Assembly: GCA_937931205.1 (NCBI GenBank) | Contig: CALHBF010000019.1 | Location: 79,550 to 143,549 of the forward strand | Direction of reading: 5' to 3' | Source: an uncultured Bacteriovoracaceae bacterium | GTDB taxonomy: Bacteria; Bdellovibrionota; Bacteriovoracia; Bacteriovoracales; Bacteriovoracaceae | DNA: 64,000 nucleotides | Shown: positions 20,809-53,267 of the stretch, piece after piece | Position numbering within the stretch: position 1 is the first letter of the stretch | Layout: every line of letters starts with the position of its first letter | The notes under the pieces: model-generated | Seen by the model: only the letters and a program-made list of their open reading frames with translations | Database searches by the model: none | What the model was told of the DNA's origin: nothing | Made by a program: the position numbers and the translations under genes

Positions 20809-22833
20809 ATGGGGCAATTTATGAAGAAAAGTTACCTAATGTTATTCGTCTTAATGTCACAGCAACTCGCGGCGAGTAGCACATTAGGGAGTTTGACAGA
20901 TTTTCAAGGTAGCTATGAAGAGAAAGTTGAAGGTAAAACGGATGCTTCCTCGCAGGTGAGAAATAAATCTGAAACTTCTTCAGAAGAAAATGGTCGATGT
21001 GAAGAGAATGATCAAACTTCCATGCCTCTTGCTTTCGCAACTTCTCTCATCATCGGAAAGAATGCAAAATTTGATGTTGATTATAGTCCACGAAACGCGA
21101 AGTTAAGTGTTGGTGCCAATTCGATGATTTCCAACTGTTCTTCAATGATGGATTGGAAACTAAAAGAGCAAGAAATCAAAGGTCAAAAAACATACGTCGT
21201 TGAGGCGAAATTTCGTGAAGGTGATAAGTGTGTTGATGGCATCTGTACTTATAAAGTGGCCAAAGTCTCAGGCGGAGAATTTCAGCAGTACGAAGAAATG
21301 CAGTTCGCTCCTACCCTTAAAGGTTTTGAATCATGTCTAAAAGCTTCGGGTGTTATTAAAGATGGGAAAGTTGATCAGAAGGCCATCTACTCAGCACCAC
21401 TAAAACAAACTTTTAACAATGTGAAAGATACAGGGAAACTACTTTTTGTTTCTCACGGACCTCAGTCCGCGATGATTAAAGGAAAGTACGGTGACTTTGA
21501 ATTAATCAATCGTTGTGATCATTACGAAGCTATTCACCCAGAAATTAAGCAGCTTCTTTCTTATGAAGATGAGTCTCGTATAAAACTTGATGAAGAGGCA
21601 AATAAACTTAAAGATTGCGGTGTTGACGAGTACCATAAATTGATTGGTTTCATTGAGCGTTATGAGGAGTATGCCTCAATTCTTGGTGCTGTAAGAGATA
21701 ATCTTATTATTGAAGCTGCTAAGAAAACCGCTAAGAAAATTGAAGAAGGAAAGTACACAGATGAAGATCTGAAAGTGCTGGCCGATTTTGAGCAATATAT
21801 TGTTACTCCTAAGGTCAATCACGCCATTCGCCTTTATCAGCAGATGGAGAATCTTGAAGGTGATGCAAAACGAGCTAAGCAAGCAGAGTTGAAAGAATCT
21901 CTTAATGAGCTAGCTGTTCTTAATAATAAGCCTTATTTCTCATCAACTCATACTCAAAAGCTATTGAATGATGGCCGCTTTGAAGATGCTGAGAAAGTAA
22001 ACGGCATCAAGATCACTCTTGATACCTATAGAAAACTTGGAACAAAACAGAATAATGTACTGATCACTCCTGAAGTTGCCATGATTAGCATGGTGAATGC
22101 TAAAGATGAGTTTGCGAAGTCATCAATTGTTGCTCAGGAAAGATACCAAATCAGAACAGGCCAACTAACTGGTCAGGCCGATCACTACAATAATCTGGTG
22201 AGAAAACTTCAGAATTCAATTCAAGTCAGAACTCAGAACTATCAGGCCGAGCTGCAAGCTGAATATCAGCGAATCGTACCTGGGGGTTACTGTTACGCTT
22301 ACTATCGTAATACTCAGAAATGTATTCAAGATTCAATGGAGCGAATGCAAGAGCTCCAAAATCTATTAGCTCATTATAACAAAATCGATAATGAGAGAAT
22401 TGCTGAGTATAAGCAGTCAGCTGAAGAATATGGAAAACTAGAAGCTGAAGGAAGACGTTACGTCGCTCAACAAAATGGCGAGACTGTAGAAGAAGCGCCT
22501 CAAGCTGGAAGAAATATTGCCACCGATACAACTGCACCTCCTCAAAGAAATGCTCAAGGAACTGCAACAGTTCAAGCTGATCTTTCAGGAAACACTAATA
22601 TGGTTCAGATGGCCAATCAGTTGGCACAAATGTATCAGCAACAGCAACAACAGCAGATGGGCGGTCAAAATCAAATGGGCGGCCAGTGGTGGAACCAGCA
22701 GGGAATGGGTCAGCAGAATCAGATGATGATGGGCGGATCTATGAATGTGAATATGGGGATGGGTGCCCAGTATGGTTCAAACTATATGTCGAATCCACAC
22801 CAGGCCTATAACTATCAATATCGCGGATTTTAG
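20809..22833 (+). CDS. Secreted Cys-containing helical protein with Q/M/G/N-rich low-complexity tail
   Basis: Signal peptide MKKSYLMLFVLMSQQLAA (start may be 20821); paired Cys; coiled coils; tail QQQQQQMGGQNQMGGQWWNQQGMGQQNQMMMGG. Confidence 0.7.
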   Translation: MGQFMKKSYLMLFVLMSQQLAASSTLGSLTDFQGSYEEKVEGKTDASSQVRNKSETSSEENGRCEENDQTSMPLAFATSLIIGKNAKFDVDYSPRNAKLSVGANSMISNCSSMMDWKLKEQEIKGQKTYVVEAKFREGDKCVDGICTYKVAKVSGGEFQQYEEMQFAPTLKGFESCLKASGVIKDGKVDQKAIYSAPLKQTFNNVKDTGKLLFVSHGPQSAMIKGKYGDFELINRCDHYEAIHPEIKQLLSYEDESRIKLDEEANKLKDCGVDEYHKLIGFIERYEEYASILGAVRDNLIIEAAKKTAKKIEEGKYTDEDLKVLADFEQYIVTPKVNHAIRLYQQMENLEGDAKRAKQAELKESLNELAVLNNKPYFSSTHTQKLLNDGRFEDAEKVNGIKITLDTYRKLGTKQNNVLITPEVAMISMVNAKDEFAKSSIVAQERYQIRTGQLTGQADHYNNLVRKLQNSIQVRTQNYQAELQAEYQRIVPGGYCYAYYRNTQKCIQDSMERMQELQNLLAHYNKIDNERIAEYKQSAEEYGKLEAEGRRYVAQQNGETVEEAPQAGRNIATDTTAPPQRNAQGTATVQADLSGNTNMVQMANQLAQMYQQQQQQQMGGQNQMGGQWWNQQGMGQQNQMMMGGSMNVNMGMGAQYGSNYMSNPHQAYNYQYRGF

Positions 22834-24284
22834 AAACCAACTGTCACTCGGAAACCTCCACCATGGACGTTTGCGAGTGACTGCTCTTTAGCAGCATTTG
22901 TGAAAGCATAATAATCTCCCACAAACCAGTAACCGTAGTAACCACTTACCATCACGTTTGGATTCCACATGTAATCGAATCCAAGATCAACCTCAAAACC
23001 TAGGTCTTTTGATTGTTTGTTATTTGCCATGAAAGCGTAATTTCTTTCGTGGTGATAAGATGTTTTACCAGCTTTTGCTGTTTCCATGGCATTGGCAAAA
23101 ATGAAAGCAGCTTTCCAGTTCCATTTATCAGTTTTGTATGTCCCGTGAAGACGAGCAAACTGAGCATTTGAGATAGGTGAGTTGAAGATATTTCTGCCAC
23201 CTTCTGTGAAACCAGGGTAGTAGTAGCGGAACATAAGTTCAGCAATCTGGAAGTTCGGGTGAAGATAAGCTGCTTCAAATTTATTATTACCAGATTTATC
23301 ACCTGATACTTGTCCAGCTTTGAAACCAACATCCCATTTAGGATTAATTTCGTACTTTGAATCTAGAATGTAAGCTGAAGCAGAAACTTTTGATTTACCA
23401 GAACCAAGAATATTTCCGTAGTCACCTGTGATCATCGGAGCTTCAAAAGCTACAGTAAGTTTATTCCATTTTTTCTCGATGTAAGGATCGATGATTGTAA
23501 CAGAAGTTTTTCCTCTGTTTGTTGTAACGTTACCTGTTGAGTCTGCACCATTATAGAAAGCGGAATCAGGTTCACTGGTTCTTTTGGCATAAAGCACACT
23601 TACAGTTAGATCACGGTTTTTATTCTGGTACTGAGCAACAGTACCGATTTCGCTAACGTTACCTTGGCCAGAAGCATCGACTCTTCTATTCGCCCCATCA
23701 TTTCGAATGCTTGAAATTTTCGCCCAGTAAGGAGTTACCGAGAAATTACCGATCTTAATTTCAGCTTCAATCCCGTCATACATGGTGAAAAAACGATCCC
23801 ATGCATCTGTTCCACCATCGTACACAGCACCTAGACCGTATTGTTTTGCCTTACGACCGATTTTAATCAGAGCTGTATCTGCATAAAGCTCGGCATAAAG
23901 TTGGTTGAAGTTAAGTTGAGAACTCTGAGAAGGAGAAGTGTAGAAATAAGAATTATTATTCTCATTTTGTCCTTCAGCACCTGCAAATCCACCACGCATT
24001 GAACCAGTTGATAATTCACCTTTTAAGGTAACGGCATCATTGATGATGATGGTTGGGTTGAGTTTGAAAATATATGTCTGGAAGCTAGTTCCTTTTTTGC
24101 TGCCCTCAATTTCCTGCGAACCATCTGCCGGAGCTGTTACCGATTTAGTTGTTCTGCGCATATTTGATAAATAATGGCTATCGACGCCAAAAGATCCTGA
24201 CCAATCAATGGGAAGGGCCTGGGCGTGGTTAATGCCGAGCATTGAAACCGCGGCAAGAGCAAGTGGACGAATTTTAGTGGTCAT
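22830..24284 (-). CDS. Porin-like outer-membrane beta-barrel
   Basis: Signal peptide (AQA-LP); amphipathic strands; KDLGFEVDLGFDY; ends RVTVGF. Confidence 0.75.
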   Translation of the reverse strand: MTTKIRPLALAAVSMLGINHAQALPIDWSGSFGVDSHYLSNMRRTTKSVTAPADGSQEIEGSKKGTSFQTYIFKLNPTIIINDAVTLKGELSTGSMRGGFAGAEGQNENNNSYFYTSPSQSSQLNFNQLYAELYADTALIKIGRKAKQYGLGAVYDGGTDAWDRFFTMYDGIEAEIKIGNFSVTPYWAKISSIRNDGANRRVDASGQGNVSEIGTVAQYQNKNRDLTVSVLYAKRTSEPDSAFYNGADSTGNVTTNRGKTSVTIIDPYIEKKWNKLTVAFEAPMITGDYGNILGSGKSKVSASAYILDSKYEINPKWDVGFKAGQVSGDKSGNNKFEAAYLHPNFQIAELMFRYYYPGFTEGGRNIFNSPISNAQFARLHGTYKTDKWNWKAAFIFANAMETAKAGKTSYHHERNYAFMANNKQSKDLGFEVDLGFDYMWNPNVMVSGYYGYWFVGDYYAFTNAAKEQSLANVHGGGFRVTVGF

Positions 24285-24395
24285 CAGGGCCTCTAGTGTT
24301 AGTTAAAAAAAGAATAGTAAAACTATAGAAAAGTGTTCAGGAAGTGGAAAGCCCTAAGAAGTTATAAAAATAAACAGATAACTTGAACTGATGAC

Positions 24396-24424
24396 TTGCA
24401 AAATTTAGTTGAATCCCTTATATT
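24396..24424 (+). promoter_or_regulatory. Sigma70-type promoter of the tRNA-Gln-prs operon
   Basis: TTGCAA-N17-TATATT, 21 nt upstream of the tRNA. Confidence 0.6.
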
Positions 24425-24445
24425 CGATGGAATTAAAAGTTCTGT

Positions 24446-24520
24446 AGGGGTGTCGACAAGTGGTAAGTCAGCAGATTTTGATTCTGCCATTCGTAGGTTC
24501 GATCCCTGCCACCCCTACCA
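24446..24520 (+). tRNA. tRNA-Gln (UUG)
   Basis: Acceptor stem AGGGGTG/CACCCCT, D-arm GAC..GTC, anticodon arm GCAGA-TTTTGAT-TCTGC, T-arm GTAGG-TTCGATC-CCTGC, encoded CCA; classic position before prs. Confidence 0.95.
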
Positions 24521-24545
24521 CCTCTTTTTCTTTAAGGAGTCATGA

Positions 24546-25490
24546 GTGAGACGTATAGTGCTTGTCTCAGGTACCTCAAACCCGACCCTCTCCAAGAAGA
24601 TCTCTGAATTTCTCGATGTTCCTCTCGTTAATCCTCAAATCAGGCGTTTTGCTAATGGTGAAATCTATTGTGAGATAGAGAAGAATGTTCGTGGAGCGGA
24701 TGTTTTTGTTTTGCAGAGTACTTGTGCGCCTGTGAATGAGAATATTATGGAGCTTTTAATAATGATCGATGCACTTAAACGTGCTTCGGCCAATACGATC
24801 ACGGCAGTACTTCCGCATTACGGATATTCACGCCAAGACCGTAAGAGTGCCCCTAGAACTCCTATTACTGGGAAACTAGTGGCCGATATGCTGACAGTGG
24901 CAGGTGCTACACGCGTGATGACGATGGATCTTCATGCCGGTCAGATTCAAGGTTTCTTTAATATCCCTTTCGACAATATTTTCGCGACACCTGTTCTCTT
25001 GGATTATATGAGTAAGAGCCTTGATCCAAGTAACTTAATGGCCGTGTCCCCAGATGCGGGCGGGGTAGAGCGTGCTCGTTTCTATGCTAAGAAATTGAAC
25101 ATCGAAATGGCGCTAATTGATAAGAGAAGAACTGGTCCGAACGTTGCTCAAGCAATGAACGTGATCGGTGATGTAAAAGATAAAGATTGTATCATCCTTG
25201 ATGACATGATCGATACGGCAGGAACTCTGGTTCAAGCCGCGAAAGCACTTCGCAAGAATGGGGCAAAGAGAATTTTTGCAGCTGCGACTCACCCCGTGTT
25301 TTCAGATCCTGCGATCGCAAGAATTCGTGATTGTGAGGAACTTGAAGCAGTAATCGTTACCGATACGATCCCTTTAAGTGATGAAGCGAAGAAATTGAAC
25401 AAGATCAAGGTTGTATCAACTGCTGAAATCTTGGCCAAGTCAATTCACAGAACCTTCAACGACGATTCAGTAAGTTCGTTGTTCACTTAG
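24546..25490 (+). CDS. prs: Ribose-phosphate pyrophosphokinase
   Basis: FANGEI, YGYSRQDRK, DLHAGQIQGFF, VSPDAGGVERAR, DDMIDTAGT. Confidence 0.98.
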   Translation: MRRIVLVSGTSNPTLSKKISEFLDVPLVNPQIRRFANGEIYCEIEKNVRGADVFVLQSTCAPVNENIMELLIMIDALKRASANTITAVLPHYGYSRQDRKSAPRTPITGKLVADMLTVAGATRVMTMDLHAGQIQGFFNIPFDNIFATPVLLDYMSKSLDPSNLMAVSPDAGGVERARFYAKKLNIEMALIDKRRTGPNVAQAMNVIGDVKDKDCIILDDMIDTAGTLVQAAKALRKNGAKRIFAAATHPVFSDPAIARIRDCEELEAVIVTDTIPLSDEAKKLNKIKVVSTAEILAKSIHRTFNDDSVSSLFT

Positions 25491-25491
25491 T

Positions 25492-26061
25492 ATGTTTGAT
25501 CTAGTCGTTGGTGTAGGAAATCCTGGTTCTGAATATGCTCAAACGAGACACAATGTAGCGTGGCTCTTTTTGGATTACCTCAAAGAGATCAATCACAGCA
25601 ATTGGAAATCAAAGTTTAAGGGCCTTTATTCAGAAGGGACTTTCCAAGGTCAGAAGTTTTATGCTTTAAAGCCACAAACCTATATGAATCTATCTGGAGA
25701 ATCAGTTCAGCCGATGGCCGCTTTTTTTAAAGTACCGCCTGCAAGAATTTTGGTGATTCATGATGAGGTTGATCTGCCGTTTGGTCAGGTTCACTTTAAG
25801 ATGGGTGGCGGGTTTGCTGGCCATAATGGATTAAAATCTATTGGCGCGACTCTTGGAACAGATCAGTATGCTAGACTTCGCATTGGTATTGGTCGTCCGG
25901 TTCATGGGGCCATGAGTAACTGGGTATTAGGTAACTTCACTCAGGACGAGAAGGCCCAATTAGAGATTATTTTTGAGAAACTAAGGACTCCTTTCTATGA
26001 ATGCCTAAAATCTGGCGTTGCAAAAGTGGGTCCGTATAATAAAAAGAATTTTTTAGCTTAG
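25492..26061 (+). CDS. pth: Peptidyl-tRNA hydrolase
   Basis: GNPG..Y..TRHNV, KPQTYMNLSG, HDEVD, GHNGLKSI. Confidence 0.97.
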   Translation: MFDLVVGVGNPGSEYAQTRHNVAWLFLDYLKEINHSNWKSKFKGLYSEGTFQGQKFYALKPQTYMNLSGESVQPMAAFFKVPPARILVIHDEVDLPFGQVHFKMGGGFAGHNGLKSIGATLGTDQYARLRIGIGRPVHGAMSNWVLGNFTQDEKAQLEIIFEKLRTPFYECLKSGVAKVGPYNKKNFLA

Positions 26062-26071
26062 GAGAATATGT

Positions 26072-27181
26072 ATGGGTATGAATTGTGGAATCGTGGGTCT
26101 ACCAAACGTAGGGAAATCTACTATTTTTTCAGCGTTAACGAGTGCACCTGCAGAAGCTGCAAACTATCCGTTTTGTACAATTGAACCTAACGTAGGGATC
26201 GTTCATATTCCTGATGAGCGTATGGAAAAAATCGCAAAGCTTATCGGACCTGAAAGAGTTATTCCTGCTGTAACTGAATTCGTAGATATCGCGGGCCTAG
26301 TAAAAGGTGCTTCAAAAGGTGAAGGTCTTGGTAACCAATTCCTTGGTCACATTCGTCAGGTGGGAGCTATCTGTCACGTTGTTCGTTGTTTTGAAGACGG
26401 AGATATCGTTCACGTTGCAGGGAAAATTGATCCGGTAAGTGATATGGAAGTGATTAACCTTGAGCTTGCTTTTGCTGATCTTGAATCTGTTCAAAAGCGT
26501 CTGCAAACTCTTGATAAATACATTAAGTCTCAGGATAAAAAAGTTTCTGATAAAGCAAAAATTGCTAAGCCAATCCTTGAGCGTCTGGTTAAAGCTCTAG
26601 AGGATGGTCTTCCTGCTCGCTCACTTGATCTTGATGAAGATGAGAAAGATTCAATCTCTGATCTTCACCTTATTACCATGAAGAAAATGCTTTATGTTTG
26701 TAACGTAGATGAAGCTTCTATCCTTGAAGACAATGAGCACGTTAAAAAGGTGAGAGAGATTGCTGCGAAAGAAGGCGCAGGAGTTATTACGATCTGCGGA
26801 AAAATCGAATCAGAAATTGCTGCTCTTGAAACAGCTGAAGAAAAAGCAGAATTCCTAAAAGATATCGGTATTGAAGAATCAGGTTTATCAAAAATGATTA
26901 AAGCTGGTTATAACATGCTTGGAATGAAAACATACTTTACTGCTGGTGTTAAAGAAGTTCGTGCTTGGACTTTCCCTGATGGTGCTAAAGCGCCTCAAGC
27001 TGCAGGTGTGATCCACTCTGATTTTGAGCGTGGATTCATTAAGGCAGAAGTATTTCACTGTGATGATCTTTTCCAATACGGCTCAGAAGCTAAAGTGAAA
27101 GAAGCTGGAAAATTCCGTATGGAAGGTAAAGAGTACGTTGTGAAGGACGGAGATGTTATTCACTTCCGCTTCAACGTGTAA
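26072..27181 (+). CDS. ychF: Redox-regulated ATPase YchF
   Basis: GIVGLPNVGKST, NYPFCTIEPN, DIAGLVKGASKGEGLGN, TGS domain. Confidence 0.98.
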   Translation: MGMNCGIVGLPNVGKSTIFSALTSAPAEAANYPFCTIEPNVGIVHIPDERMEKIAKLIGPERVIPAVTEFVDIAGLVKGASKGEGLGNQFLGHIRQVGAICHVVRCFEDGDIVHVAGKIDPVSDMEVINLELAFADLESVQKRLQTLDKYIKSQDKKVSDKAKIAKPILERLVKALEDGLPARSLDLDEDEKDSISDLHLITMKKMLYVCNVDEASILEDNEHVKKVREIAAKEGAGVITICGKIESEIAALETAEEKAEFLKDIGIEESGLSKMIKAGYNMLGMKTYFTAGVKEVRAWTFPDGAKAPQAAGVIHSDFERGFIKAEVFHCDDLFQYGSEAKVKEAGKFRMEGKEYVVKDGDVIHFRFNV

Positions 27182-27200
27182 TTTAAAATGCTGTTAAAAT

Positions 27201-27230
27201 AAAAAAGGGACTCTTTCGAGTCCCTTTTTT
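27201..27230. terminator. Bidirectional rho-independent terminator
   Basis: AAAAAAGGGACTC-TTTC-GAGTCCCTTTTTT between convergent genes. Confidence 0.9.
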
Positions 27231-27231
27231 A

Positions 27232-29295
27232 TTAGTGCTTGTAACCAAGAGTTACATTAAAGATTTTATTGTTTTCTGGATTATCAACCAATTCATCGCT
27301 TGTTAGAAGCTTGTAGAAGAAAAGGTTTCTAAAAATAAGTTTTACGTAGGTTCTTGTTTCTTTGAATGGAATCGTTTCAATATTTCTGACGATCGTTTCA
27401 TCTTCATCAAAATACTGCTTTTTCCAACGCTCAACTCTTGTTTCACCGGCATTGTAGGCCGAAAGAACATGAACAAGATTATTGTCATATCTCTTCATCA
27501 GGCCTTCGAAGTATTTTGTTCCTAGCTCGATGTTTACTTTCGGGTTTGAAAGCTGAGCAACGCTGACACTTTTTCTCATGCGTTTTGCTGTCATCGGCAT
27601 TAACTGCATAAGTCCGCGAGCTCCCACTGGAGATCTTGCTTCTGGGTTGAACACTGATTCCTGACGAATGAGTGAGAGAACAAGCAATGAATCATGATTC
27701 TTGAGATTCTTTTTAAGAAGATCAAGATAGAGGCGAGGGTAAAGCAGCTCAAGAACATTACGAGAAAATCTGATCTCTTGGTTATCAAGAAGATTATAGA
27801 TGTATCTGAAGGTCATCAAATAGTTCTGAGAAGTCTGAATGATGTTGGCCTGAATAAGGTGAACAATCTCTTTATAGTCAGTATGCGACTCCATCGGCTT
27901 TTTACCCAGTAGCAGTGGGAGAGAGTACTGATTAAGTCTGCGAAGTTCCAGATCGATCATTGAAGCGTTATCAATTTTTGACCAAGCAAGAAGTCTTACA
28001 AAAGAAGCTTGGTGGTCTTGATCAAAATCATTCATGGTGGCAATTTGATTCACTCCACGTCTGGCTTCAATGTGATAGAAGCTTGCAACTGTTGAATCAG
28101 GCTTTAAATTATGTAGTCGCTTTGAGGCCATGATCGCGTAATAGCTCAAAGGACTATCAGCTACAATCTTTTCATAAATCTTTGTAGCGTCGTCTTTCTT
28201 GTCATCTTTTTCAAACACATAGGCAACCCAATATCTGAGCTGAGCATCTTTGTTTTTTTCAACTTTGGTAGCAAGGTCATCACGCTTAATGTACTTCATT
28301 GCATTCTTAAAATCGCCGGACTGGACATATGTCCAAAGGTAGAAGAAGCGGGCATCAAATTCAACTTCGCTATCTTTTTTAGAAATAACATAAGTAAGAA
28401 TTTTTCTCGATAAATCAGCATGGCCAAGTCGGTAAACAGCTTTGGCAAAGTCATTTAAACGAGTAAGGCAAAGATTTGTCGGCAAATAGCTGTAGTTGAG
28501 CTCAAGGTAGTTCTTCAAAAACTCAGTATGTTTTTTCAACTTTCCTTCATCAGGCTTATCGGCATTAAGAACTTTATATCCTTCTTCAATCAATCTGCCG
28601 TATTCAGAATAAAATACGTTTTTAAACTCTAATGGTTTGAGACCATTATTTTGAACGAGAGAAGTGATCTTATCATCGATAAGAATATCCTGAAGGATTT
28701 CGTGTGAGGGTGTTACTTGGCTTTTTAAAGAATGCTCAGTAATTTCGGCCGAAAGCTTCTGCAGAATATCGGGACGTTGATTCTGGCTTTGTAAAAAATA
28801 ACTGAAACTCTTCTGGTGAGGTTTTTGAAGATAGAACTTCAAATTGTTTTTGATAAAGAGATCAGCATACTCAGCAAGTTTATTAGTTTTATCAATTTCA
28901 CGTCCAATAAGATCAATGGCCTTTTCACGACAGAAAAAACTGAGTTTTTGATCCAGTAGTTTTTCAAGTGGAATCTCCGAAATCTTCATTGAGAGTTCGC
29001 TGCAGTGTTGAGCAAGTTCAGCTGGGTTCTTTTTCAGTGAAACAACTTCTAGACCATCAACCCATTTAATAAAAGGAGCATAGTTTTTAGATTTGGTAAT
29101 TTCAGTTTTGACCTGTTTGGTTAATGTCGGGTTATAGTTACCCTCATCACTCATTTTAAGAAGTGCCGTGATTTTTTCAGCGATAATGAGGTCAGCACGA
29201 GATAATTTAATTTCTTTGACCAGATTTTCCTGGGCATAGAGAGTGTGCGAAAACAGAGCAAAAGATAGAATAAAAAATTTCATAATGATCTTCAA
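27232..29295 (-). CDS. Slt-family soluble lytic transglycosylase
   Basis: Signal peptide; helical/TPR region; catalytic IRQES.FNP.ARS.VGARGLMQLM, AYNAG, ETRTYV. Confidence 0.9.
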   Translation of the reverse strand: MKIIMKFFILSFALFSHTLYAQENLVKEIKLSRADLIIAEKITALLKMSDEGNYNPTLTKQVKTEITKSKNYAPFIKWVDGLEVVSLKKNPAELAQHCSELSMKISEIPLEKLLDQKLSFFCREKAIDLIGREIDKTNKLAEYADLFIKNNLKFYLQKPHQKSFSYFLQSQNQRPDILQKLSAEITEHSLKSQVTPSHEILQDILIDDKITSLVQNNGLKPLEFKNVFYSEYGRLIEEGYKVLNADKPDEGKLKKHTEFLKNYLELNYSYLPTNLCLTRLNDFAKAVYRLGHADLSRKILTYVISKKDSEVEFDARFFYLWTYVQSGDFKNAMKYIKRDDLATKVEKNKDAQLRYWVAYVFEKDDKKDDATKIYEKIVADSPLSYYAIMASKRLHNLKPDSTVASFYHIEARRGVNQIATMNDFDQDHQASFVRLLAWSKIDNASMIDLELRRLNQYSLPLLLGKKPMESHTDYKEIVHLIQANIIQTSQNYLMTFRYIYNLLDNQEIRFSRNVLELLYPRLYLDLLKKNLKNHDSLLVLSLIRQESVFNPEARSPVGARGLMQLMPMTAKRMRKSVSVAQLSNPKVNIELGTKYFEGLMKRYDNNLVHVLSAYNAGETRVERWKKQYFDEDETIVRNIETIPFKETRTYVKLIFRNLFFYKLLTSDELVDNPENNKIFNVTLGYKH

Positions 29296-31181: not shown

Positions 31182-31185
31182 ATTC

Positions 31186-33214: not shown

Positions 33215-33230
33215 TGGCATTCTGCTTGCT
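33215..33230 (+). promoter_or_regulatory. Sigma54 (-24/-12) promoter
   Basis: TGGCATTCTGCTTGCT = TGGCA..TTGCT with GG-N10-GC spacing. Confidence 0.75.
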
Positions 33231-33256: not shown

Positions 33257-33994
33257 ATGAGTAAGAAAAATTGGACAATTTGGGGAACAGCTTTTCTTTT
33301 CACCGTTATCGGTACTTACAACTCTGTTGTTATCGATTCAAAATCAGTTCTTGATAATGCTCACCATTCACTAGTTAAGCGACTTGATCACGAAGGAGTT
33401 AATCGTCCTGCTCGTATGGTTGCTTCAACTGTTAAATGGCAAAAAATTCGTCCTGTGGCCCCACAAAAACAAGTGGCCATTATTCGCCAAGAATTAACTC
33501 CAGCTCAAAACAGTATTGCTGCTGAGGCAGTAGTTTCAGAAGATCTTAATCTTGTTTTAGTTGAAGTGATTAACCCAGAAAAATTTAAAGATGGTCTAGC
33601 TTCGACAGACTTCTCAGGAATGCTGACAACCAATGGCGGTCAGATTGAAACTCTTGAAGTTTCACTTCCAGAAGGTCTTGGTGTTTCGGTTTCTTACTCT
33701 GAAATTAGCGGTAACGTTTTTGAATATGAATCAAATGGTGAAACACAAAGTGGAATGGTTTATCAGGTAGATCAGAATGCTTATATGGTAAGCTTTACTG
33801 CTGGAGCGATGGCGGGAACACGTCTTCGTTTCCAATCTACAGAAGCTATTCAAACAGAAACTCAAAATACTGAACTTGCTGATGCTTCATCTGATGTTGG
33901 TCAATTTGGACAAGAAGGTTATGATGCTGAACAGATGGCCAATCTTGACCGTGATCTTCAAAAACAAGCATTAGATGAAGGTTTTAAATTCTAA
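33257..33994 (+). CDS. Membrane-anchored/exported hypothetical protein
   Basis: AGGAG RBS; N-terminal hydrophobic segment; beta-rich core; acidic tail. Confidence 0.7.
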   Translation: MSKKNWTIWGTAFLFTVIGTYNSVVIDSKSVLDNAHHSLVKRLDHEGVNRPARMVASTVKWQKIRPVAPQKQVAIIRQELTPAQNSIAAEAVVSEDLNLVLVEVINPEKFKDGLASTDFSGMLTTNGGQIETLEVSLPEGLGVSVSYSEISGNVFEYESNGETQSGMVYQVDQNAYMVSFTAGAMAGTRLRFQSTEAIQTETQNTELADASSDVGQFGQEGYDAEQMANLDRDLQKQALDEGFKF

Positions 33995-39993: not shown

Positions 39994-40021
39994 TTAATTT
40001 TTTCTCACTCCCTGACGATAA
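39994..40021 (+). promoter_or_regulatory. Putative sigma28-type promoter
   Basis: TTAATTTT-N12-GACGATAA upstream of the LysM lipoprotein gene. Confidence 0.45.
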
Positions 40022-40058: not shown

Positions 40059-40685
40059 GTGTATATGAAATATTCAGTAGTAATTGCCCTTGCAAGCTTA
40101 ATGTTGGTTGCATGTTCAGGCTCTAAATCAGCTCAAAAAGTAAACGAAGACGTAGCTCAAATTGAGTTAACAGAAGCAGATGAAATGATGGGCGATGATA
40201 TGGGCATGACAGATGATGCAAACGATCCTGTTATGGTTGAAATGATGGGTGGAACATTGCCTGCAGAAGAAGGCGCTCCGGTAATTTCAGAAGCACACGG
40301 CATGGGAGCTGTTTCAGAATATACTGTTGGTAAAAATGAAACACTAATGATCATCGCTTTCAAAATTTATGGTGATTACGGCCAGTGGAAAGAGATTGCG
40401 AATCTGAACAGAGATGTTCTAAAGAGTAATTCACCTAGAGAAGGGATGAAGCTAAAGTATCATGCTCCTGCTCAGGCATTTGTTTGGAATCCAGAAGGTA
40501 ATCCTTATTTGATCAAAACTGGTGATACTCTAGGTACAATTTCTCACGAAGTTTACCAAACTAACCAAAAATGGAAAATTTTGTGGGATAACAATAGACC
40601 ACTGATCAAAGATCCGAATAAGATCTTTGCTGGTTTTACAATTTATTACCCAGATTTAAATCGTGATGTTGCTTCAGAACTTTAA
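40059..40685 (+). CDS. Lipoprotein with two LysM domains
   Basis: Lipobox LVAC; YTVGKNETLMIIA..IYGD and YLIKTGDTLGTIS..VY...W..L...N..LI.DPNKI. Confidence 0.85.
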   Translation: MYMKYSVVIALASLMLVACSGSKSAQKVNEDVAQIELTEADEMMGDDMGMTDDANDPVMVEMMGGTLPAEEGAPVISEAHGMGAVSEYTVGKNETLMIIAFKIYGDYGQWKEIANLNRDVLKSNSPREGMKLKYHAPAQAFVWNPEGNPYLIKTGDTLGTISHEVYQTNQKWKILWDNNRPLIKDPNKIFAGFTIYYPDLNRDVASEL

Positions 40686-46150: not shown

Positions 46151-46178
46151 GTAGAGTCTCCTATTGGAAGAAAACAAA

Positions 46179-46415: not shown

Positions 46416-46586
46416 TTTTTAAGCGCTTGGCGTCAAAAGCTTTTCTCAAAGCAAACGTGCGTCAGACTTATAACTTGATGGGCCGTCTATGTCCATGAAG
46501 AAAGTTTGGGAGTGTAATAAAGTAATACAAATAAGTTTTATGAAGTGGTAAAATAGTGAAAATATTCATGAATATACGGTTTTTCC

Positions 46587-47426
46587 ATGCTACCAAATTT
46601 CGTCCTTATATGTAGTTTTTTGTTCCTTACTTTGGCCTGTTGGCTCTTCCTAAGTGGTCTAATTCTCGTGACCGCCCTGTTGCTATTGGTGGTACTGGCC
46701 TTAGTGGTCTGGAATTATGCTGATAAGGCCATTCTCTACTTCCTTGGGGCGCGCGAAATCATGAGTAGTGATGAGCCGAATTTCTTTCAAGAGGCCACTC
46801 AGCAGGCCTATAAGCTCTCGATCAAAACTCCCAGCCTCTATTTCTATAACGGACTATTTGAACGTGCCTTTGTTTTACAAAATGGTGAGGATGTCTCATT
46901 AGTTCTTTCGCGCTCACTGCTTGATCGTGCAGGGAAGAATGAATTATCTGTGATCTGCTTTTCACTTTTATTGCAGGTAAAGAAAAAGATGGCGCCAACT
47001 CGTACGAAGGCCATGCTTGTTTTAGGACTAATCACTTGGCTGGTGCATGGCCTTGGAAGTGTCGTCGCGATTTTGATTCCATCAAAAAATGTTAAAGAAG
47101 CTGTTTTCCTACTTCTTAACTTCTTTCTTCATCCTTGGTTAAGGCTCAATTTTAAATTTTTGATCGGAGAGAGATATTTTAAAAAGTTGGGAATTTATCT
47201 GGCCGATTTTCCACAGGAAAATAACGAGCTGACCCATTTCTATTTAAAAATAAGACATCCAAGCGAGATCTCTTCACATCCGTCACGAAGACTGATTGAA
47301 CTTTTCTCAAGTCAGCGTTCTTCACATTATCAGAACGTATTGAGCCTAGAGCTCTTACCCCACGAATGGGATTATTATCAACAACACCAGGAAGGTTTAA
47401 GTGATAAGGAAACTGCGAGAGCTTGA
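46587..47426 (+). CDS. HtpX/M48-like membrane protein lacking HExxH
   Basis: N-terminal TMs; W..ADK.IL...GAR, P.LY, VLSRSLL.....ELSVI follow the HtpX layout, with FSLLLQ in place of HExxH. Confidence 0.6.
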   Translation: MLPNFVLICSFLFLTLACWLFLSGLILVTALLLLVVLALVVWNYADKAILYFLGAREIMSSDEPNFFQEATQQAYKLSIKTPSLYFYNGLFERAFVLQNGEDVSLVLSRSLLDRAGKNELSVICFSLLLQVKKKMAPTRTKAMLVLGLITWLVHGLGSVVAILIPSKNVKEAVFLLLNFFLHPWLRLNFKFLIGERYFKKLGIYLADFPQENNELTHFYLKIRHPSEISSHPSRRLIELFSSQRSSHYQNVLSLELLPHEWDYYQQHQEGLSDKETARA

Positions 47427-49272
47427 GTTAAGTAAGTTTGCGCCTTTACTGGTAACGCTCTCTTTTATTTTTATTCTGATCCAATACTCATTCCATCCTC
47501 TGGAATCAGTCTTTCATGATTTCTGGATCAAGTCAGATTTCATGAGCTCAAAAATTGAGTCTCCTATTGTGATCATTCATATGGATGAAGAAAGTGATCA
47601 GTTCCTTGGGGATTCTTATCCTTATACTTACGCCACTCATTCACGTTTTTTAAAAAGACTTATTCAGGATGGGCCGAGCCAGCTTATCTATTTTATGAAC
47701 TTGCAGGACCCTTCAATTAAAGAAGAGGAAACCCATCTCTCTATCGTTCATGAACTTATCAATCAGTATGATCCTGATAAAACTAAATTTAGATTTGGAA
47801 CTGAGCTGGATGTTTTTGGTGAAACACTGCCGCCAGCTGAGTTAAAAGATTTAGGATATAGCTTTTCACAAATTTATAAAGATCAGTTGATTTTTGCCAA
47901 AGATGAAGTTGTTCGTCGTGCGATTCTCAATGTTAGTGGCGATGACTCACTTCATCTGGCCAGTGCTAAGGAATTGAGAAAAAAATTAGGCGAAGAAATT
48001 CTCAATGCTTCAAGCTATCCGGGCTCTTACTACAGCCCTGAGGCTGAAGCTCATTTCGCTCTTTTCAAATATGCTAGTAACCCGATGTCAGATAGTGTTT
48101 CTTCGATTGCCTTTCACAAAGTTGCCGTAGGTAATTTTCCGAAAGGCTTTTTTAAAGATAAGATCGTTTTAGTTGGACCTCGCTACCTTGCTAATTCTTC
48201 TGACTTCGTTTTCACTCCCTTTAGCAAAGAAAACTTCAAGACTCCGAAGTTAGCTGTTCATGCTGAAATCATTAATGCACTGGCCTTGAAGCGAACGATT
48301 ATTGATGTCCCAGAGATATTCTCACAAGTGCTGGCCTTATTAATTGCGGTTTTCTTATCTCTCATCATCTCTCGCGTTCAGCCGGTGAAAGGGCTGATGG
48401 TTACCATTTCCCTGATTGGTGGGATTCTTCTACTCAGCTATCTGTCATTTTGCTTATGGGGAGTTTGGTTTAAGCTCTCACACATTGTACTGAGTATTTT
48501 CATTGTTTATTATATTTGGGTTCCCTTTCGTGCAATTGAAGAATATCAGACTCGTTATGCCATTCAGGAAGAAACAAAACTTCTTAAACAAGTGGATAAT
48601 CTAAAGCAGAACTTTATCTCGCTTATGAGTCACGATCTTAAAACACCGGTTGCCAAGATCGCAGGAATTGTTGATCTTCTGAAAATGAAACTGGGCCCGC
48701 AGAATGAGGCAACCGATCTGGTGCATAAGATTTCTGATTCCACTAAAGAACTAAACAGTTTCATTAACTCGATTCTTGATTTAACTAAAATTGAGTCGCA
48801 AAACCTGACGATCAGAAAAGAGTCAAAAGACTTAAATAAAATCATTGAGGCAACTGTTGAGAAACTTCAGTTTGAGGCCAATGCTAAAAACATTGAGCTG
48901 TCGGAAGAATTATCACCTCTGTATCCCATCCAGATTGATGTCATCCTGATGAATCGGGTAATTTCCAACCTCATTGAAAATGCCATAAAGTACTCCGGAG
49001 AGGGCAAAAGCGTCTGGATTAAAACTTGGGATGATGCTGATTGGGTTTATGTTGAAATCAAGGATAATGGGCCTGGAATCAAAGAAGAAGATATCAATCA
49101 CATCTTTGATAAATTTTATCGGGTAAAAAATGATTCAACTCACGTGATAAAAGGTTCAGGACTTGGGTTATACTTAGTTAAATACTTTATTGAGCTTCAT
49201 AGTGGTACAATTACAGCGACCTCAAAGCTTGGTGAAGGAACGTCTTTTATTATAAAATTAAGGAACGAATAG
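47401..49272 (+). CDS. CHASE2-domain sensor histidine kinase
   Basis: IVIIHMDEES, FKDKIVLVG, VHAEII, three TMs; H-box SHDLKTP, NLIENAIKY, DNGPGI, GSGLGL. Confidence 0.92.
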   Translation: MIRKLRELELSKFAPLLVTLSFIFILIQYSFHPLESVFHDFWIKSDFMSSKIESPIVIIHMDEESDQFLGDSYPYTYATHSRFLKRLIQDGPSQLIYFMNLQDPSIKEEETHLSIVHELINQYDPDKTKFRFGTELDVFGETLPPAELKDLGYSFSQIYKDQLIFAKDEVVRRAILNVSGDDSLHLASAKELRKKLGEEILNASSYPGSYYSPEAEAHFALFKYASNPMSDSVSSIAFHKVAVGNFPKGFFKDKIVLVGPRYLANSSDFVFTPFSKENFKTPKLAVHAEIINALALKRTIIDVPEIFSQVLALLIAVFLSLIISRVQPVKGLMVTISLIGGILLLSYLSFCLWGVWFKLSHIVLSIFIVYYIWVPFRAIEEYQTRYAIQEETKLLKQVDNLKQNFISLMSHDLKTPVAKIAGIVDLLKMKLGPQNEATDLVHKISDSTKELNSFINSILDLTKIESQNLTIRKESKDLNKIIEATVEKLQFEANAKNIELSEELSPLYPIQIDVILMNRVISNLIENAIKYSGEGKSVWIKTWDDADWVYVEIKDNGPGIKEEDINHIFDKFYRVKNDSTHVIKGSGLGLYLVKYFIELHSGTITATSKLGEGTSFIIKLRNE

Positions 49273-49282
49273 GAGCCTTTTT

Positions 49283-50767
49283 ATGCATAAGGTATTGGTT
49301 GTCGACGATGATAAAGTTCTTCAACAGAACGTTAAGCAAGCGTTAGAGTTTCATCACTTTGTAGTTGATGTTGCTGACAACGGAAAAGAAGCAGTAACAA
49401 AGGTTTATGGCCAGAAATATGATCTGGTGGTGATGGATGTGAACATGCCAGAAATGGATGGGATCGAAGCCTTAACCGAAATTAAAAAACATGATCCTTC
49501 AGTTATCGTGCTTATTTTAACTGCTTATTCCAATGTCTCTGATGCTGTGAAAGTAGTTAAAGAAGGTGCGTACAACTATCTAGAAAAGCCGATCAGCTCT
49601 GATAACTTGGTGGCTCTTATTAAGAGAGCATTGAAAGCAAGATCAATGGTTGAAACGGTTGGTTTCTCTTCTCCAACTCTTTCTATTGGTGATTCAGGTT
49701 CAGATAAGTTTGTTGGTGAATCTAATGCCATGAAAAAGGTATTTGATGTTATCTCTAAACTGGCCAAGGTTTATACTCCTGTTCTTATTCGTGGAGAATC
49801 TGGTACTGGTAAAGAATTAGTGGCAAAGGCCATTCACTACAACTCACCAAGAAAAGATGAAAAGTTTGTTACGATTAACTGTGGAGCAATTCCAGAGAAC
49901 TTAATTGAGTCAGAACTTTTTGGTCACGAGAAAGGTGCTTTCACCGGTGCTGATCAAAGAAAGATCGGGAAATTCCAATACGCTGAAGGCGGCACGATCT
50001 TTTTAGATGAGATTGGAGATGTATCAGGTGCCATGCAGGTAAAGCTTCTGCGTGTACTTCAGGAAAAAACATTTACTCCCGTGGGCTCTAACAGAGAGAT
50101 CAAGGTAGATGTGAGAATTATTGCTGCTTCTCATAAGCCCTTTGAAGAAATGATTAAAGAAGGTACATTCCGCGAAGATTTATTCTACCGTCTAAATGTT
50201 CTTCCTGTTTATCTTCCACCACTTCGTGAGAGAAAATCGGATATTCCACATCTAGTGAATCACTATATTAATTATTTTAATAATGTTCATAATCTCCAAA
50301 TCAAGGGTGTTGAAGCGAAGGCCATGGATGCATTAAGTAACTATGCTTGGCCAGGTAACATCAGAGAATTGAGAAACATTATTGAACATTGTTTTATTAT
50401 GGAATCGGCCGACACGATCCATCTTTCATCACTTCCTTCAATTGTGCTTAAAGGTAAAAATCACCATACGGAAGAAGCGAGTCATGAAGAGACGATGATT
50501 GATTTAGAAGAAATTCAAAAATCAGTTCTCGATCACGCCCCAATGCCGGCCAGTGACAATTCGCATTTTAGTTTTGGTGCAAACTTTAACGATGGAAAAC
50601 TTGATTTTGCTATTGCCAAAGACCAGTTTGAAAGAGAATTTATCGTTCATGCATTGAAGATGAATAAGGGAAGAATTAACCAAACCGCCTTAAATGCGAA
50701 TATCCCTAAGAAAACTCTTCTTCGTAAGATTGAAAAATACGAAATTAATCCAAAGGATTATTACTAA
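49283..50767 (+). CDS. Sigma54-dependent response regulator (NtrC family)
   Basis: REC domain (VVDDD, DVNMP), GESGTGKE, ESELFGHEKGAFTGA, FREDLFYRL, C-terminal Fis-type HTH. Confidence 0.96.
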   Translation: MHKVLVVDDDKVLQQNVKQALEFHHFVVDVADNGKEAVTKVYGQKYDLVVMDVNMPEMDGIEALTEIKKHDPSVIVLILTAYSNVSDAVKVVKEGAYNYLEKPISSDNLVALIKRALKARSMVETVGFSSPTLSIGDSGSDKFVGESNAMKKVFDVISKLAKVYTPVLIRGESGTGKELVAKAIHYNSPRKDEKFVTINCGAIPENLIESELFGHEKGAFTGADQRKIGKFQYAEGGTIFLDEIGDVSGAMQVKLLRVLQEKTFTPVGSNREIKVDVRIIAASHKPFEEMIKEGTFREDLFYRLNVLPVYLPPLRERKSDIPHLVNHYINYFNNVHNLQIKGVEAKAMDALSNYAWPGNIRELRNIIEHCFIMESADTIHLSSLPSIVLKGKNHHTEEASHEETMIDLEEIQKSVLDHAPMPASDNSHFSFGANFNDGKLDFAIAKDQFEREFIVHALKMNKGRINQTALNANIPKKTLLRKIEKYEINPKDYY

Positions 50768-51297
50768 TGAATCGTTTCTGGACTCTTTGTCTTATTATGG
50801 CCGCCCTTATTCTTGTTGATCAGTTCACTAAAGGGGCCATCCAATCAAGTCTCCAATGGGGTCAGTCGATTCCAGTGATCGACGGCTTTTTTAGCATTGC
50901 CTATGTTAAAAATACGGGGGCAGCTTTTGGATTTGGAGCTGGCGGCCCGGAATGGTTTCGCATCATTTTCTTCCTCGCTCTACCAGTGATCTTTTGTGGC
51001 TGGATTTTTTATATGCTGGTTAAAACGATCTCAGGCCCTTACTACTTGTCATTGGCCTATGGATTGATTCTTGCGGGGGCGATTGGGAACCTCATTGATA
51101 GATTCTATCTTGGTTACGTCGTGGACTTTCTTCTTTTCTACTGGAAAGACGAAAGAAATCATTTTCCGGCATTCAACGTAGCTGACAGCTGCATTACGAT
51201 TGCTGCATTTCTTCTTATCTATGACTTCTTTGTTCAAGCGAAGCTAAGCAAAGAGAAAGGTCAGGGTAATGTTTCCGATCCTACTGCAAACAAGTAA
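50767..51297 (+). CDS. lspA: Lipoprotein signal peptidase II
   Basis: DQFTK, NTGAAFG, GAIGNLIDR, VVDF, FNVAD. Confidence 0.96.
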   Translation: MNRFWTLCLIMAALILVDQFTKGAIQSSLQWGQSIPVIDGFFSIAYVKNTGAAFGFGAGGPEWFRIIFFLALPVIFCGWIFYMLVKTISGPYYLSLAYGLILAGAIGNLIDRFYLGYVVDFLLFYWKDERNHFPAFNVADSCITIAAFLLIYDFFVQAKLSKEKGQGNVSDPTANK

Positions 51298-51997
51298 TTT
51301 CATTCTTTATTCCTACCCCCTGTTAATGGGACTTGCCTGGGGGGTAGGATATCAAATTTTTCTAGCTCACATTGAAGAAGAACAACGATCACGAGCTCAA
51401 ATTCTTTTTTGGGGATCGTTCATCAGCGCATGGTTAGGTGCGAAGATTTTTTTTATTATCACATCAGGAAGTTCACTCTCTCCTGAGTTTTTACAAAGTT
51501 CTAGCTTCTGGATGGGCGGAGGTTTTGTTTTTTACGGCGGCTTTCTTGCCGGAGCTCTGTTTTATCTGCTCTTCTACTTAAAATTTCGCTTTTCCACTCA
51601 ATGGATTAAGTGGACAGTCGTTTCGATTTGTTTTGCTCACGCTATAGGTAGAATCGGTTGTTTGCTGGCCGGTTGCTGTTATGGGAAAGTTACTGAAGCA
51701 TGGTGGGGAATTCATCTCCATGGCCAGTATCGCCATCCGACACAAATTTTAGAGGCCCTCTCTCTTATCATTCTTGGTTTTATCCTTATCCGCATTAAGC
51801 ATATTCCTTTGGTGCTCGCCAGTTATCTCGCCGGTTACGGATTAATTAGATTTATGATTGAAATCTTAAGAGGGGATCTCCTACGTGGCTCTTGGGCCTG
51901 GGGGCTAACGCCTTCGCAATGGGTTTCCATTCTGCTGATATTTTCAGGAGTTAGCATTAAAATTGCCGATCGCCTGCTATCCGCTAAAACAAAGTAG
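51269..51997 (+). CDS. lgt: Prolipoprotein diacylglyceryl transferase
   Basis: GGFVFYGG, AIGRIGC...GCCYG, HPTQILE, RFMIEILRGD. Confidence 0.88.
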   Translation: MFPILLQTSNFILYSYPLLMGLAWGVGYQIFLAHIEEEQRSRAQILFWGSFISAWLGAKIFFIITSGSSLSPEFLQSSSFWMGGGFVFYGGFLAGALFYLLFYLKFRFSTQWIKWTVVSICFAHAIGRIGCLLAGCCYGKVTEAWWGIHLHGQYRHPTQILEALSLIILGFILIRIKHIPLVLASYLAGYGLIRFMIEILRGDLLRGSWAWGLTPSQWVSILLIFSGVSIKIADRLLSAKTK

Positions 51998-52025
51998 TCA
52001 AGTTTTTAGTTGATCACTCCGATAG
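51998..52025 (+). promoter_or_regulatory. Putative sigma28-type promoter
   Basis: TCAAGTTT-N12-TCCGATAG; the best match in the window. Confidence 0.65.
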
Positions 52026-52049
52026 GGAACTTGAGGAGAATCAATATTT

Positions 52050-53267
52050 ATGAACACACCATTGGGAAGCATTCCACCAAGACTACTTAAATTCAGACAC
52101 CAGTATGTGGTCTATTTTCGAGTACTGGGCCTTGTCGCTTTATCCCTATTATGTTTTTGGCCGGGTCTCATCTTTTCTTACGGATGGGAATCAGTTAGTT
52201 CAAGGTATCCTTTGGAGATGGCATTCTCGGGGATGTATCTCATGGCATTTAGCGTAGGGTATGTTTGCTGGTGGAGATTAAAATTACGCCAGACAATTCA
52301 AGTTTTCTCCGATCATCTTCTTATTCACCGTAAAGGTAAAAAGACAGAAGTTCGCTTTGAGAATATCGAAGCAGTTCAAGCTGTTTGTTGGTCACTTTTT
52401 TATGTAAAAATGAAGAATGGTGAAAAACATTATTTTAACTCAACTCTAGAGCGAGTGGATTACATCTGGGAAGGTGTTTACTCACATCGCCCTGAATTGT
52501 TTAAAAAAGAAGAGTATGAATCATTCAGAATCAAACTGGTTCAATATGATCACCATCAAAAAAGAAAAGAGTGGTTCTTCCGTCACAGATTTTTAGATGT
52601 TCTCAATTGGTGTTTTTTACCAATGGTTTTTATGTCGACTATTTACTGGTATCAATCTCAAGAAGTTCAGATTTACCAGCCCGTCTATTATTTCTTCCGT
52701 CTTACGATGTATTCGGCCCTGACTTTACTGTCGACGGCATTCGTTTACATGATCATCATTAAGAAGTTGGTTTTTGATAAAAAAGTTGAAGAACAGCTTG
52801 AAGCAGAGCCAAGTGATAAGCTTCGTGATTTGGATTATGAAAATGTCATTATTCAAAGAACTAAGTTTTTCCAAACGGTTTCCGTTGTTGCTTTATTCAC
52901 GATGATTATTCAGAGTGACTTTAATATGTATACGCTGACTAAACTCAGAGGGAATGTCGCTAACTTTCATCTAATTGAAGGCAAGACCATGTTGGTGGAT
53001 AATCGTTATAACTGCAGCAGTTGTAAGTACTCCATCCAAGATGGCGATGTGGTTGTGTACTCCAAAGGTCAAATTGGTCAAGTAATCGCTCGTGGGGGTG
53101 ATGTTATTGGCCAAGTTTCAGAGAATAAAACCGGCAGAAGTATTGCTTCCATCAACACTGAAACGGTGATGATGGTTCCTAAGGGTAAAGTGGCGCTAAG
53201 ACTTGCTGGTGATGATGAAATGATCATCATTGAAGAGTCTGACCTTGTTGGTAAGTTACAAAATTAA
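52050..53267 (+). CDS. Membrane protein with bPH-like domain and degenerate signal-peptidase-I-like C-terminal domain
   Basis: About five TMs; C-terminal GKTMLVDN..GDVVVY..IGQVIA.GGD..VPKG..LVGK resembles the S26 boxes. Confidence 0.5.
   Translation: MNTPLGSIPPRLLKFRHQYVVYFRVLGLVALSLLCFWPGLIFSYGWESVSSRYPLEMAFSGMYLMAFSVGYVCWWRLKLRQTIQVFSDHLLIHRKGKKTEVRFENIEAVQAVCWSLFYVKMKNGEKHYFNSTLERVDYIWEGVYSHRPELFKKEEYESFRIKLVQYDHHQKRKEWFFRHRFLDVLNWCFLPMVFMSTIYWYQSQEVQIYQPVYYFFRLTMYSALTLLSTAFVYMIIIKKLVFDKKVEEQLEAEPSDKLRDLDYENVIIQRTKFFQTVSVVALFTMIIQSDFNMYTLTKLRGNVANFHLIEGKTMLVDNRYNCSSCKYSIQDGDVVVYSKGQIGQVIARGGDVIGQVSENKTGRSIASINTETVMMVPKGKVALRLAGDDEMIIIEESDLVGKLQN

Follow-up and report, generated by a model that had tools for sequence, protein, structure and literature searches.

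Analysis of a 64,000-nucleotide stretch of DNA from an uncultured Bacteriovoracaceae bacterium (the window), and of the genome that contains it, revealed a short linear motif of exported proteins with the working definition R-x-[PI(V)]-A-[S>A,G,N,Q]. Counts establish that the motif is real, and it is phylum-wide in Bdellovibrionota and lineage-specific. The reader of the motif and its chemistry are put forward as a hypothesis with about an even chance of being correct, namely that the motif is the recognition site of one dedicated, exported, phylum-restricted subtilase. Homologues labelled as Bacteriovoracaceae in their source records likewise assign the genome to Bdellovibrionota.

Enrichment of the motif in exported proteins

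Gene calls and export classes for the window's genome (G000, 86% complete) came from our own scripts rather than from standard predictors; the classes contain errors, and these should dilute any enrichment. The set comprises 3,041 proteins, including 1,064 that are exported or singly anchored and 1,625 that are cytoplasmic. A preliminary description of the window had proposed R-x-[IV]-A-[ST] as recurring in exported proteins, with chance matches possible. Genome-wide, the exported proteins have 34 matches where 14.3 would be expected, and the cytoplasmic proteins 17 where 17.6 would be; the enrichment is confined to the exported proteins of this genome. The definition itself held only in part. 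A position scan over G000 and its relatives retained Arg alone at position 1, Ala at position 4 and Ser at position 5 (Ser 76 against 20.6 expected, with Thr at 18 against 15.0, Ala at 23 against 21.8 and Asn at 10 against 13.6). At position 3 the commonest residue was Pro (34 against 5.2), absent from the sites in the window, followed by Ile (30 against 7.4), with Val flat (12 against 8.0). The core of Arg, Ile, Ala and Ser was thus upheld, whereas Val in bulk and Thr were unenriched (Thr as last residue in exported proteins of G000, 10 against 8.1). Variants with Thr, Leu or Lys were dropped from the enriched core, and K-x-[IVP]-A-S is mildly elevated in exported and cytoplasmic proteins alike.

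The refined pattern, R-x-[PI]-A-S, occurs 37 times in exported proteins of G000 against 6.5 expected, in 34 of the 1,064 proteins, and 6 times against 8.0 in the cytoplasmic class. The corresponding P values are 2e-16 for G000 and 2e-8 for relatives outside the window's own family (f1), which were not part of the first count. Local 25-residue shuffles of the exported proteins gave a mean of 6.4 matches and a maximum of 14, and controls for spacing and order were flat (20–30 against ∼20.6). Among 103,153 gapped tetramers R-x-P-A-S ranked fourth, in the company of Cys, His and Trp patterns, and the 34 motif genes of G000 belong to 30 unrelated families.

The sample of relatives covered ∼2 Mb from 21 genomes in 11 families. 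R-x-[IVP]-A-S was found 30 times in their exported proteins against 9.9 expected, and R-x-[PI]-A-S, counted outside f1, 22 times against 5.0 in 550 exported proteins; the small samples from f12 (2 against 1.4), f17 and f31 showed no excess. The cytoplasmic class of the relatives, as classed, carried a small excess (21 against 12.2), with several of its gene starts doubtful. A later set of 20 loci named as Bdellovibrionota gave 5 against 0.8, 52 outgroup loci (870 kb, 251 exported proteins) gave 2 against 2.9, and eight loci of unclear taxon, which were kept apart, gave 1 against 0.6. The earlier proposal of a lineage-specific linear motif of exported proteins is borne out by this distribution.

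That the matches are coincidental, or that they reflect loop structure without any common reader, is extremely improbable. The pattern was refined on the same genome in which it was counted, one of the sites flagged in the window (RNIAT, below) is unconserved and some sites lie inside folded domains (ExbD-like and TonB-C-like). Set against this are the two P values, the excess in the later named set, the flat outgroups and controls, and the spread over 30 unrelated families, and for the Pro/Ile core the chance reading is refuted. Chance may still account for lone Val or Thr sites.

Placement, conservation and promoters of motif proteins

The motif had been described as falling in linkers, loops and termini, and the placement across the genome is in keeping with this. 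The strict motif is enriched 19-fold in lipoprotein tethers (6 against 0.31 expected), 13-fold in the last 25 residues of exported proteins (11 against 0.85) and 10-fold just past signal peptides (11 against 1.12), with a 3-fold enrichment in the middle of exported proteins; the C-terminal 25 residues of 2,396 cytoplasmic proteins contained none. Orthologues retain the motif where the flanks diverge. A tetratricopeptide repeat (TPR) lipoprotein has an R-x-P-A end in all 29 aligned orthologues, mostly 1–7 residues before the stop, and a cupredoxin-like family retains the motif in a linker of variable length. In a family at 26–49% identity the motif, often doubled, sits in an unalignable linker ahead of a C-terminal hydrophobic segment, and in 7 of 17 loci for deacetylase lipoproteins it stands a short way past the lipobox, several of the others having doubtful starts. 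Tandem copies also occur, with three in one FecR-like protein and pairs in many members of a different family.

Four tiny exported proteins of 43–78 residues, encoded outside the window (G000 C21:68470–68610, C15:92137–92268, C1:231963–232124 and C1:242017–242253), consist of a signal peptide or lipobox, the motif, a short tail and little else; they are possible decoys, inhibitors, anchors or peptide precursors. Four further exported proteins, paralogous to one another (C11:3–1292, C11:4194–9290, C12:158–5431 and C4:61446–62795), carry RKPAS, RKPSS or RRPAS at residue 50–51, past an N-terminal hydrophobic segment, and two of them, at ∼1,700 residues, are fibre-like by size alone.

Such placement is open to a reading in which nothing is cut. 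In this main rival, which is possible though on the unlikely side, the motif would be a docking ligand, R-x-[PI]-A-small, gripped in disordered regions by an envelope receptor that localises or sorts attack-phase proteins; the receptor could be a scaffold, a chaperone, a secretion component or the subtilase itself as a binding hub. The variable position of the motif (N-terminal tether, linker or extreme C terminus), the tandem copies, the tiny proteins that are hardly more than signal plus motif, and the tails too short to merit cutting all favour docking. The residue preferences point the other way. Parsimony over 212 sequences from six families (queries included) counted 6 changes for Arg, 77 for x, 5 for Ala and 27 for Ser, and of 29 changes at position 3 just three leave the Pro/aliphatic class. 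Pro was found at x in 0 of 206 sequences, and neither at x nor directly after Ser in 64 sites. By the general rule for canonical binding to proteases, the Pro exclusions and the exchange of Pro with β-branched residues at position 3 fit a serine-protease site read from P4 to P1′.

The same tree bears on the proposal of an O-glycosylation sequon, or another modification in which Ser would be the acceptor of a periplasmic transferase, which is quite unlikely. Ser is strongly favoured over Thr and all other residues in bulk, bacterial O-glycans usually reside on lipoprotein tethers, linkers and tails, and serine-preferring PglL enzymes reportedly exist. The acceptor should, however, be the most constrained residue, and Ser is the least conserved of the fixed positions; 39 of the 212 sequences retain R-x-aliphatic-[AS] with no Ser or Thr at position 5, and Ser-less C-terminal tails such as REVAA-DL, RVPAA-ID and RMPAN-LNH have no hydroxyl at x or beyond. 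A Ser/Thr sequon is further disfavoured by the lack of Thr enrichment. A single Wzy_C gene was found, within a cluster of flippase, chain-length and glycosyltransferase genes. It was rejected as a likely PglL on account of this polysaccharide cluster and of its sole NCBIfam match, a weak polymerase model; the search with PF11846 gave no signal in any control, and with G000 at 86% completeness a transferase could be missed.

The four pentapeptides flagged in the preliminary description all lie in frame on the forward strand of the window, in proteins that are, as it held, unrelated: LysM is the sole Pfam family recognised among them and none is common to them. The 24 window genes classed as exported contain five R-x-[IV]-A-[ST] matches against 0.28 expected, the fifth being in a 514-amino acid open reading frame that the heuristic probably mis-called as exported, and no motif site in the window has Pro at position 3. 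Three of the four examples proved to be conserved. In a 405-amino acid membrane protein (52050–53267), the canonical RSIAS (53136–53150) lies in a loop within the C-terminal domain, and 58 of 60 aligned homologues (every second of 120 listed, from 247 found) have R-x-[IV]-A-[ST] at this position, with x free to vary and the flanks conserved too. A Pfam scan of this family gave nothing at E ≤ 1; the spacing of conserved residues in the C-terminal domain (52900–53267) may resemble that of the β-domain of signal peptidase I. Within 50767–53267 the gene lies after lspA and lgt, both lipoprotein-maturation genes.

RMVAS (33413–33427) is located ∼30 residues past the N-terminal hydrophobic segment of a 245-amino acid exported or N-anchored protein (33257–33994). 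Thirty homologues retain R in 97%, V in 90%, A in 100% and S in 50%, with Ser replaced by Ala in most members of a distant clade. A second genomic copy at 87% identity (G000 C2:79542–80273) has the motif intact. RDVAS (40662–40676) is followed by Glu-Leu and the stop of a 206-amino acid LysM lipoprotein (40065–40685), and 30 loci, the query included, show R in 87%, V in 73%, A in 90% and S in 40%. In orthologues from other families a tail variant (RTPSS-K, RAPAS-K, RTPAE-Q, RSPAG or RVPNS) is present in 10 of 14, past unrelated linkers of differing length; the lipoprotein itself was detected in 119 of the 121 genomes searched at the order level.

The remaining example did not stand. RNIAT (22510–22524), in the low-complexity tail of a 674-amino acid exported protein (20809–22833), is retained in 0 of 13 orthologues and would be a recent gain or chance. 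Eighteen residues upstream, before the variable tail, RYVAQ (22456–22470) corresponds to R-[YH]-[VI]-A-small in 9 of the 13, and may be structural instead. Of 71 genomes searched in the order, just 14 were found to have the protein, which ends, within 21000–22833, in a low-complexity tail rich in Gln, Gly, Met and Asn.

The promoters of these genes had been described as σ28-like in three cases and σ54-type in one. By the common σ54 consensus, TGGCAT-N5-TTGCT (33215–33230) precedes the 245-amino acid gene, and σ28 (FliA)-like promoters precede the 674-amino acid gene (TAAAG-N16-CCGAAT, 20759–20785, which passes the core pattern) and the 405-amino acid gene (TCAAG-N16-CCGATA, 51998–52024); these three were upheld, and the weak σ28-like promoter of the LysM gene (39994–40021) passes a loose pattern only. 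Across G000 the core σ28 pattern is present upstream of 11 of the 34 motif genes compared with 20 of 1,013 other exported genes (p = 4e-10), and on the reverse strand, as control, of 2 of 34. The looser pattern selects 121 exported genes, which contain 21 sites where 0.9 would be expected; the remaining 943 contain 16 against 5.6. The element corresponds to TTAAG-N16-CCGATA, found at 92 of 140 attack-phase promoters of Bdellovibrio bacteriovorus (PMC3627812); the available text of that study treats transcription and mentions no protein motif. Judged from their promoters, the motif proteins would thus be mostly attack-phase proteins, consistent with the tie to predation suggested earlier. FliA is present in 25 of 25 genomes, f10 among them, and is uninformative for co-distribution.

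An exported subtilase as candidate reader

G000 contains ten S8 proteases. One of them, a 343-amino acid subtilase with a signal peptide, encoded outside the window between dksA and lnt (C5:294880–295911), itself ends in R-S-V-A-N-R-stop. Of 120 close homologues, 118 have the tail in the form R-x-[VL]-A-[NT]-x-stop, with a single residue past the motif; a tail motif is also present in 34 of 104 distant homologues. Membership of S8A is indicated by a PF00082 match above cut-off and by Foldseek matches to subtilisins at E 1e-17, and the triad and oxyanion Asn (D68, H113, N197 and S267) are invariant in 50 homologues.

Alignment to subtilisin BPN′ places Glu177 at Leu135, Tyr209 at position 166 and Gly168 at Leu126. 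The first of these shapes S4 (PMC7935941), the second forms the floor of S1 (PMC3378952) and the equivalent of the third gates S2 in S1P (PMC12067269). Among 108 short representatives the three positions are Glu in 108, Tyr or Phe in 103, and Gly, Ala or Ser in 108, whereas 31 of 42 long S8 hits have Leu, Ile or Met at the 177 position. Such an acidic S4 and narrowed S1 would suit Arg at P4 and Ala at P1.

Cleavage would occur after Ala, R-x-[PIV]-A↓S, in a register with Arg at P4, any residue but Pro at P3, Pro, Ile or Val at P2, Ala (Ser, Asn) at P1 and Ser or a small residue at P1′. The Glu at the Leu135 position would hold the P4 Arg, and Tyr or Phe at 166 would narrow S1 to Ala. At stalk sites, cleavage would release domains from lipid or transmembrane anchors, and at tail sites it would trim or expose a new C terminus, in the way that S1P or Plasmodium SUB1 process their many substrates. 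Of the three functions offered in the preliminary description, a processing site is therefore the best supported, a sorting or docking tag is possible and a Ser/Thr sequon is disfavoured. With regard to docking, the pockets of the protease match three motif positions, and the protease is the sole receptor candidate found in a search that took in part of the exported families.

A cleavage site for another protease or in another register (after Arg, or between x and the aliphatic residue), with the subtilase a bystander, is decidedly unlikely. Arg is among the most invariant residues, together with Ala, G000 has ten S8 proteases, and the R-2/R-3 motif of the mitochondrial processing peptidase resembles R-x-aliphatic-[AS]-S. 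On the other side, Pro is the commonest third residue and few proteases are known to accept Pro at P1′, and the signature NYSGGG...E is unique to this subtilase among the S8 regions of G000 that were compared.

A match to the enzyme at E ≤ 1e-30, generic S8 matches counted in, was found in 209 of 221 genomes of the phylum, and the Glu signature was observed in f1, f2, f4, f6, f7, f8, f11, f12, f13 and f21. Among the matches listed, the subfamily signature occurs in 13 of the 20 Bdellovibrionota-named loci and in 0 of the 52 outgroup loci. In f10 the subfamily was found in 0 of 10 genomes at E ≤ 1e-30, and the best S8 hits of four f10 genomes have no Glu; the C-terminal motif of the TPR lipoprotein, present in f1, f8 and f11, is likewise missing from 3 of 3 f10 genomes. 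TPR orthologues of f7 and f6 have variants, and a weak orthologue in f4 has no motif at its end. One apparent counter-example, G021, was dropped, as its subtilase gene is cut at two contig ends.

Within G000 C5:293335–296478 the subtilase gene is directly upstream of the only lnt found in this genome, so that here, as at the 405-amino acid gene, a lipoprotein-maturation gene is the neighbour. Within 1.5-kb flanks of 12 subtilase loci, lnt was found in 3, with a weak match in a fourth, and dksA in one. Upstream of the subtilase gene (G000 C5, upstream of 295911) are a σ54-like element and a CCGATAA −10 element, and upstream of dksA an element GCCGATAA; neither set of upstream elements passes the two-box σ28 patterns. 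A reduced genome of the same order (G001, 0.9 Mb, 96% complete; loci L124–L127 and L289) retains the Glu-type subtilase, encoded beside dksA, as well as FliA and the LysM lipoprotein.

A predicted complex of the protease core with the C-terminal 67 residues of the LysM lipoprotein scored 0.46, the best control reaching 0.00, and weakly supports the pairing. The runs agree in at least 81% of contacts and the partner has a predicted local distance difference test score (pLDDT) of at least 80. Of 157 solved pairs, 116 came up to the mark, as did 2 of 215 mismatched ones; 18 of these solved pairs and both mismatched pairs did so at 0.60 or below.

Several observations weigh against cleavage by this enzyme. 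The complex score is weak, no contacts accompanied it, and the abundance of solved subtilisin-inhibitor complexes may account for it. A first AlphaFold model was uninformative (pLDDT 66), and in a model with a mean pLDDT of 95 the protease tail is predicted to form no strand, its last residues falling to 60. The subtilase may be merely another motif-bearing client. Ser is strongly favoured in bulk, and most Ser-less variants are of the unenriched Val type and could be structural. The co-absence in f10 concerns one lineage and may be ancestral, and the direct sample of motifs in f10 is tiny, with 0 sites in 24 exported proteins. G001 retains the protease, yet its LysM protein lacks the motif tail; a TonB-like family has no site in f2, f3, f4, f6 and f7, all of which have the protease, so that its co-distribution is mixed, and its f10 matches may be a paralogue. 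The TPR lipoproteins of G060, G016 (where Lys replaces Arg) and G122 lack the tail motif or have a changed form of it. The supplements of one proteome paper (6 of 7 files) contained no matches to the motif or to peptide headers. Bd3279 (PDB 5JP6), a lipoprotein secreted into prey (PMC10127604), has a tether without the motif, and an MltA-like protein of G000 lacks the motif as well; the motif as a general release signal for prey-delivered lipoproteins of this type was rejected on these grounds.

Lastly, many sites lie 1–8 residues from the C terminus, which leaves little for plain hydrolysis to remove. Tails of this length are odd for hydrolysis and keep both docking and transpeptidation alive. 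The latter, in which the subtilase would act like a sortase, cutting R-x-[PI]-A↓S and joining the new C terminus to an envelope amine (on peptidoglycan, lipid or another protein), is unlikely, and its share is counted within that of the subtilase hypothesis. The short tails would then be leaving groups, proteins with motif and membrane helix would be classic sorted substrates, stalk sites would shed domains and the tiny lipoproteins would be anchors. If true, this would be a phylum-wide system of covalent sorting, with a subtilisin at its core, that assembles the attack-phase envelope in predatory bacteria.

Significance and comparison with known systems

How attack-phase envelope proteins of Bdellovibrionota are matured, placed and released is largely an open question, and the targeting of prey-delivered lipoproteins has been called a possible "novel secretion and targeting mechanism" (PMC10127604). 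No description of the motif or the subtilase was found in the literature searched, subscription papers, bioRxiv supplements and one scanned supplement being outside its scope. A 2026 review (PMC13689555) mentions neither the motif nor glycosylation, subtilisin or lipobox, and the accessible parts of the Bdellovibrio fibre, toolbox and proteome papers hold no relevant passage on the motif. The motif of the Bd0967 preprint, in its accessible text, is a flagellin C-terminal one. About 3% of exported proteins carry R-x-[PI]-A-S, a share that rises to 17% (21 of 121) behind FliA-like promoters, and the motif yields a proteome-wide list of unannotated proteins that share a reader, whatever that reader is. 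Because it often adjoins a terminus, it would also have a bearing on the design of tagged fusions and on secretion engineering in these organisms.

LPXTG/sortase, PEP-CTERM and GlyGly-CTERM are C-terminal sorting signals. Their architecture is echoed in one family here, composed of signal peptide, domain, motif and C-terminal hydrophobic segment, and the short tails could be leaving groups. A C-terminal membrane helix past the motif, obligatory in those systems, is confined to that family, most sites being in N-terminal tethers, linkers and soluble tails, and the candidate enzyme is a serine subtilase. Mycosin is a dedicated envelope subtilase said to cut EspB after Ala, and its model (TIGR03921) is the best NCBIfam match of the candidate. 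At 154.9 bits against a cut-off of 278.75 the candidate falls outside that family, no type VII genes lie beside it, and its candidate substrates are dozens of unrelated proteins rather than one system.

Plasmodium SUB1 reportedly acts at a life-cycle step. Like the candidate it is an S8A subtilase, with a defined P4–P1 consensus on several endogenous proteins (PMC3378952), and subtilisin-like protease 1 chains match the subfamily profile. They differ in that the S4 pocket of SUB1 is hydrophobic and its motif (I/L/V/T)-x-(G/A)-polar, whereas here S4 is predicted to be acidic and Arg comes first.

Site-1 protease (SKI-1/S1P) has an acidic S4 and reads R-x-(L/I/V)-(L/K), and its cut in SPRING falls between the membrane helix and the ectodomain (PMC12067269). 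The candidate is bacterial, of 343 amino acids, with no membrane anchor in G000 and no recognisable pro-domain before the core, its catalytic Asp being at residue 68, ∼45 residues past the signal peptide. Its site would have Ala or Ser at P1 and often Pro at P2, unlike that of S1P, which is not among the best PDB matches listed; the relation is one of likeness and not of membership. Both are subtilases of a secretory compartment, and they would share Arg at P4, an aliphatic P2, sites in stalks between membrane anchor and ectodomain and, by alignment, an acidic S4 for the P4 Arg (Glu in 108 of 108). If the subtilase is the reader, a Gram-negative phylum would possess proprotein-convertase-type processing like that of eukaryotic S1P or SUB1.

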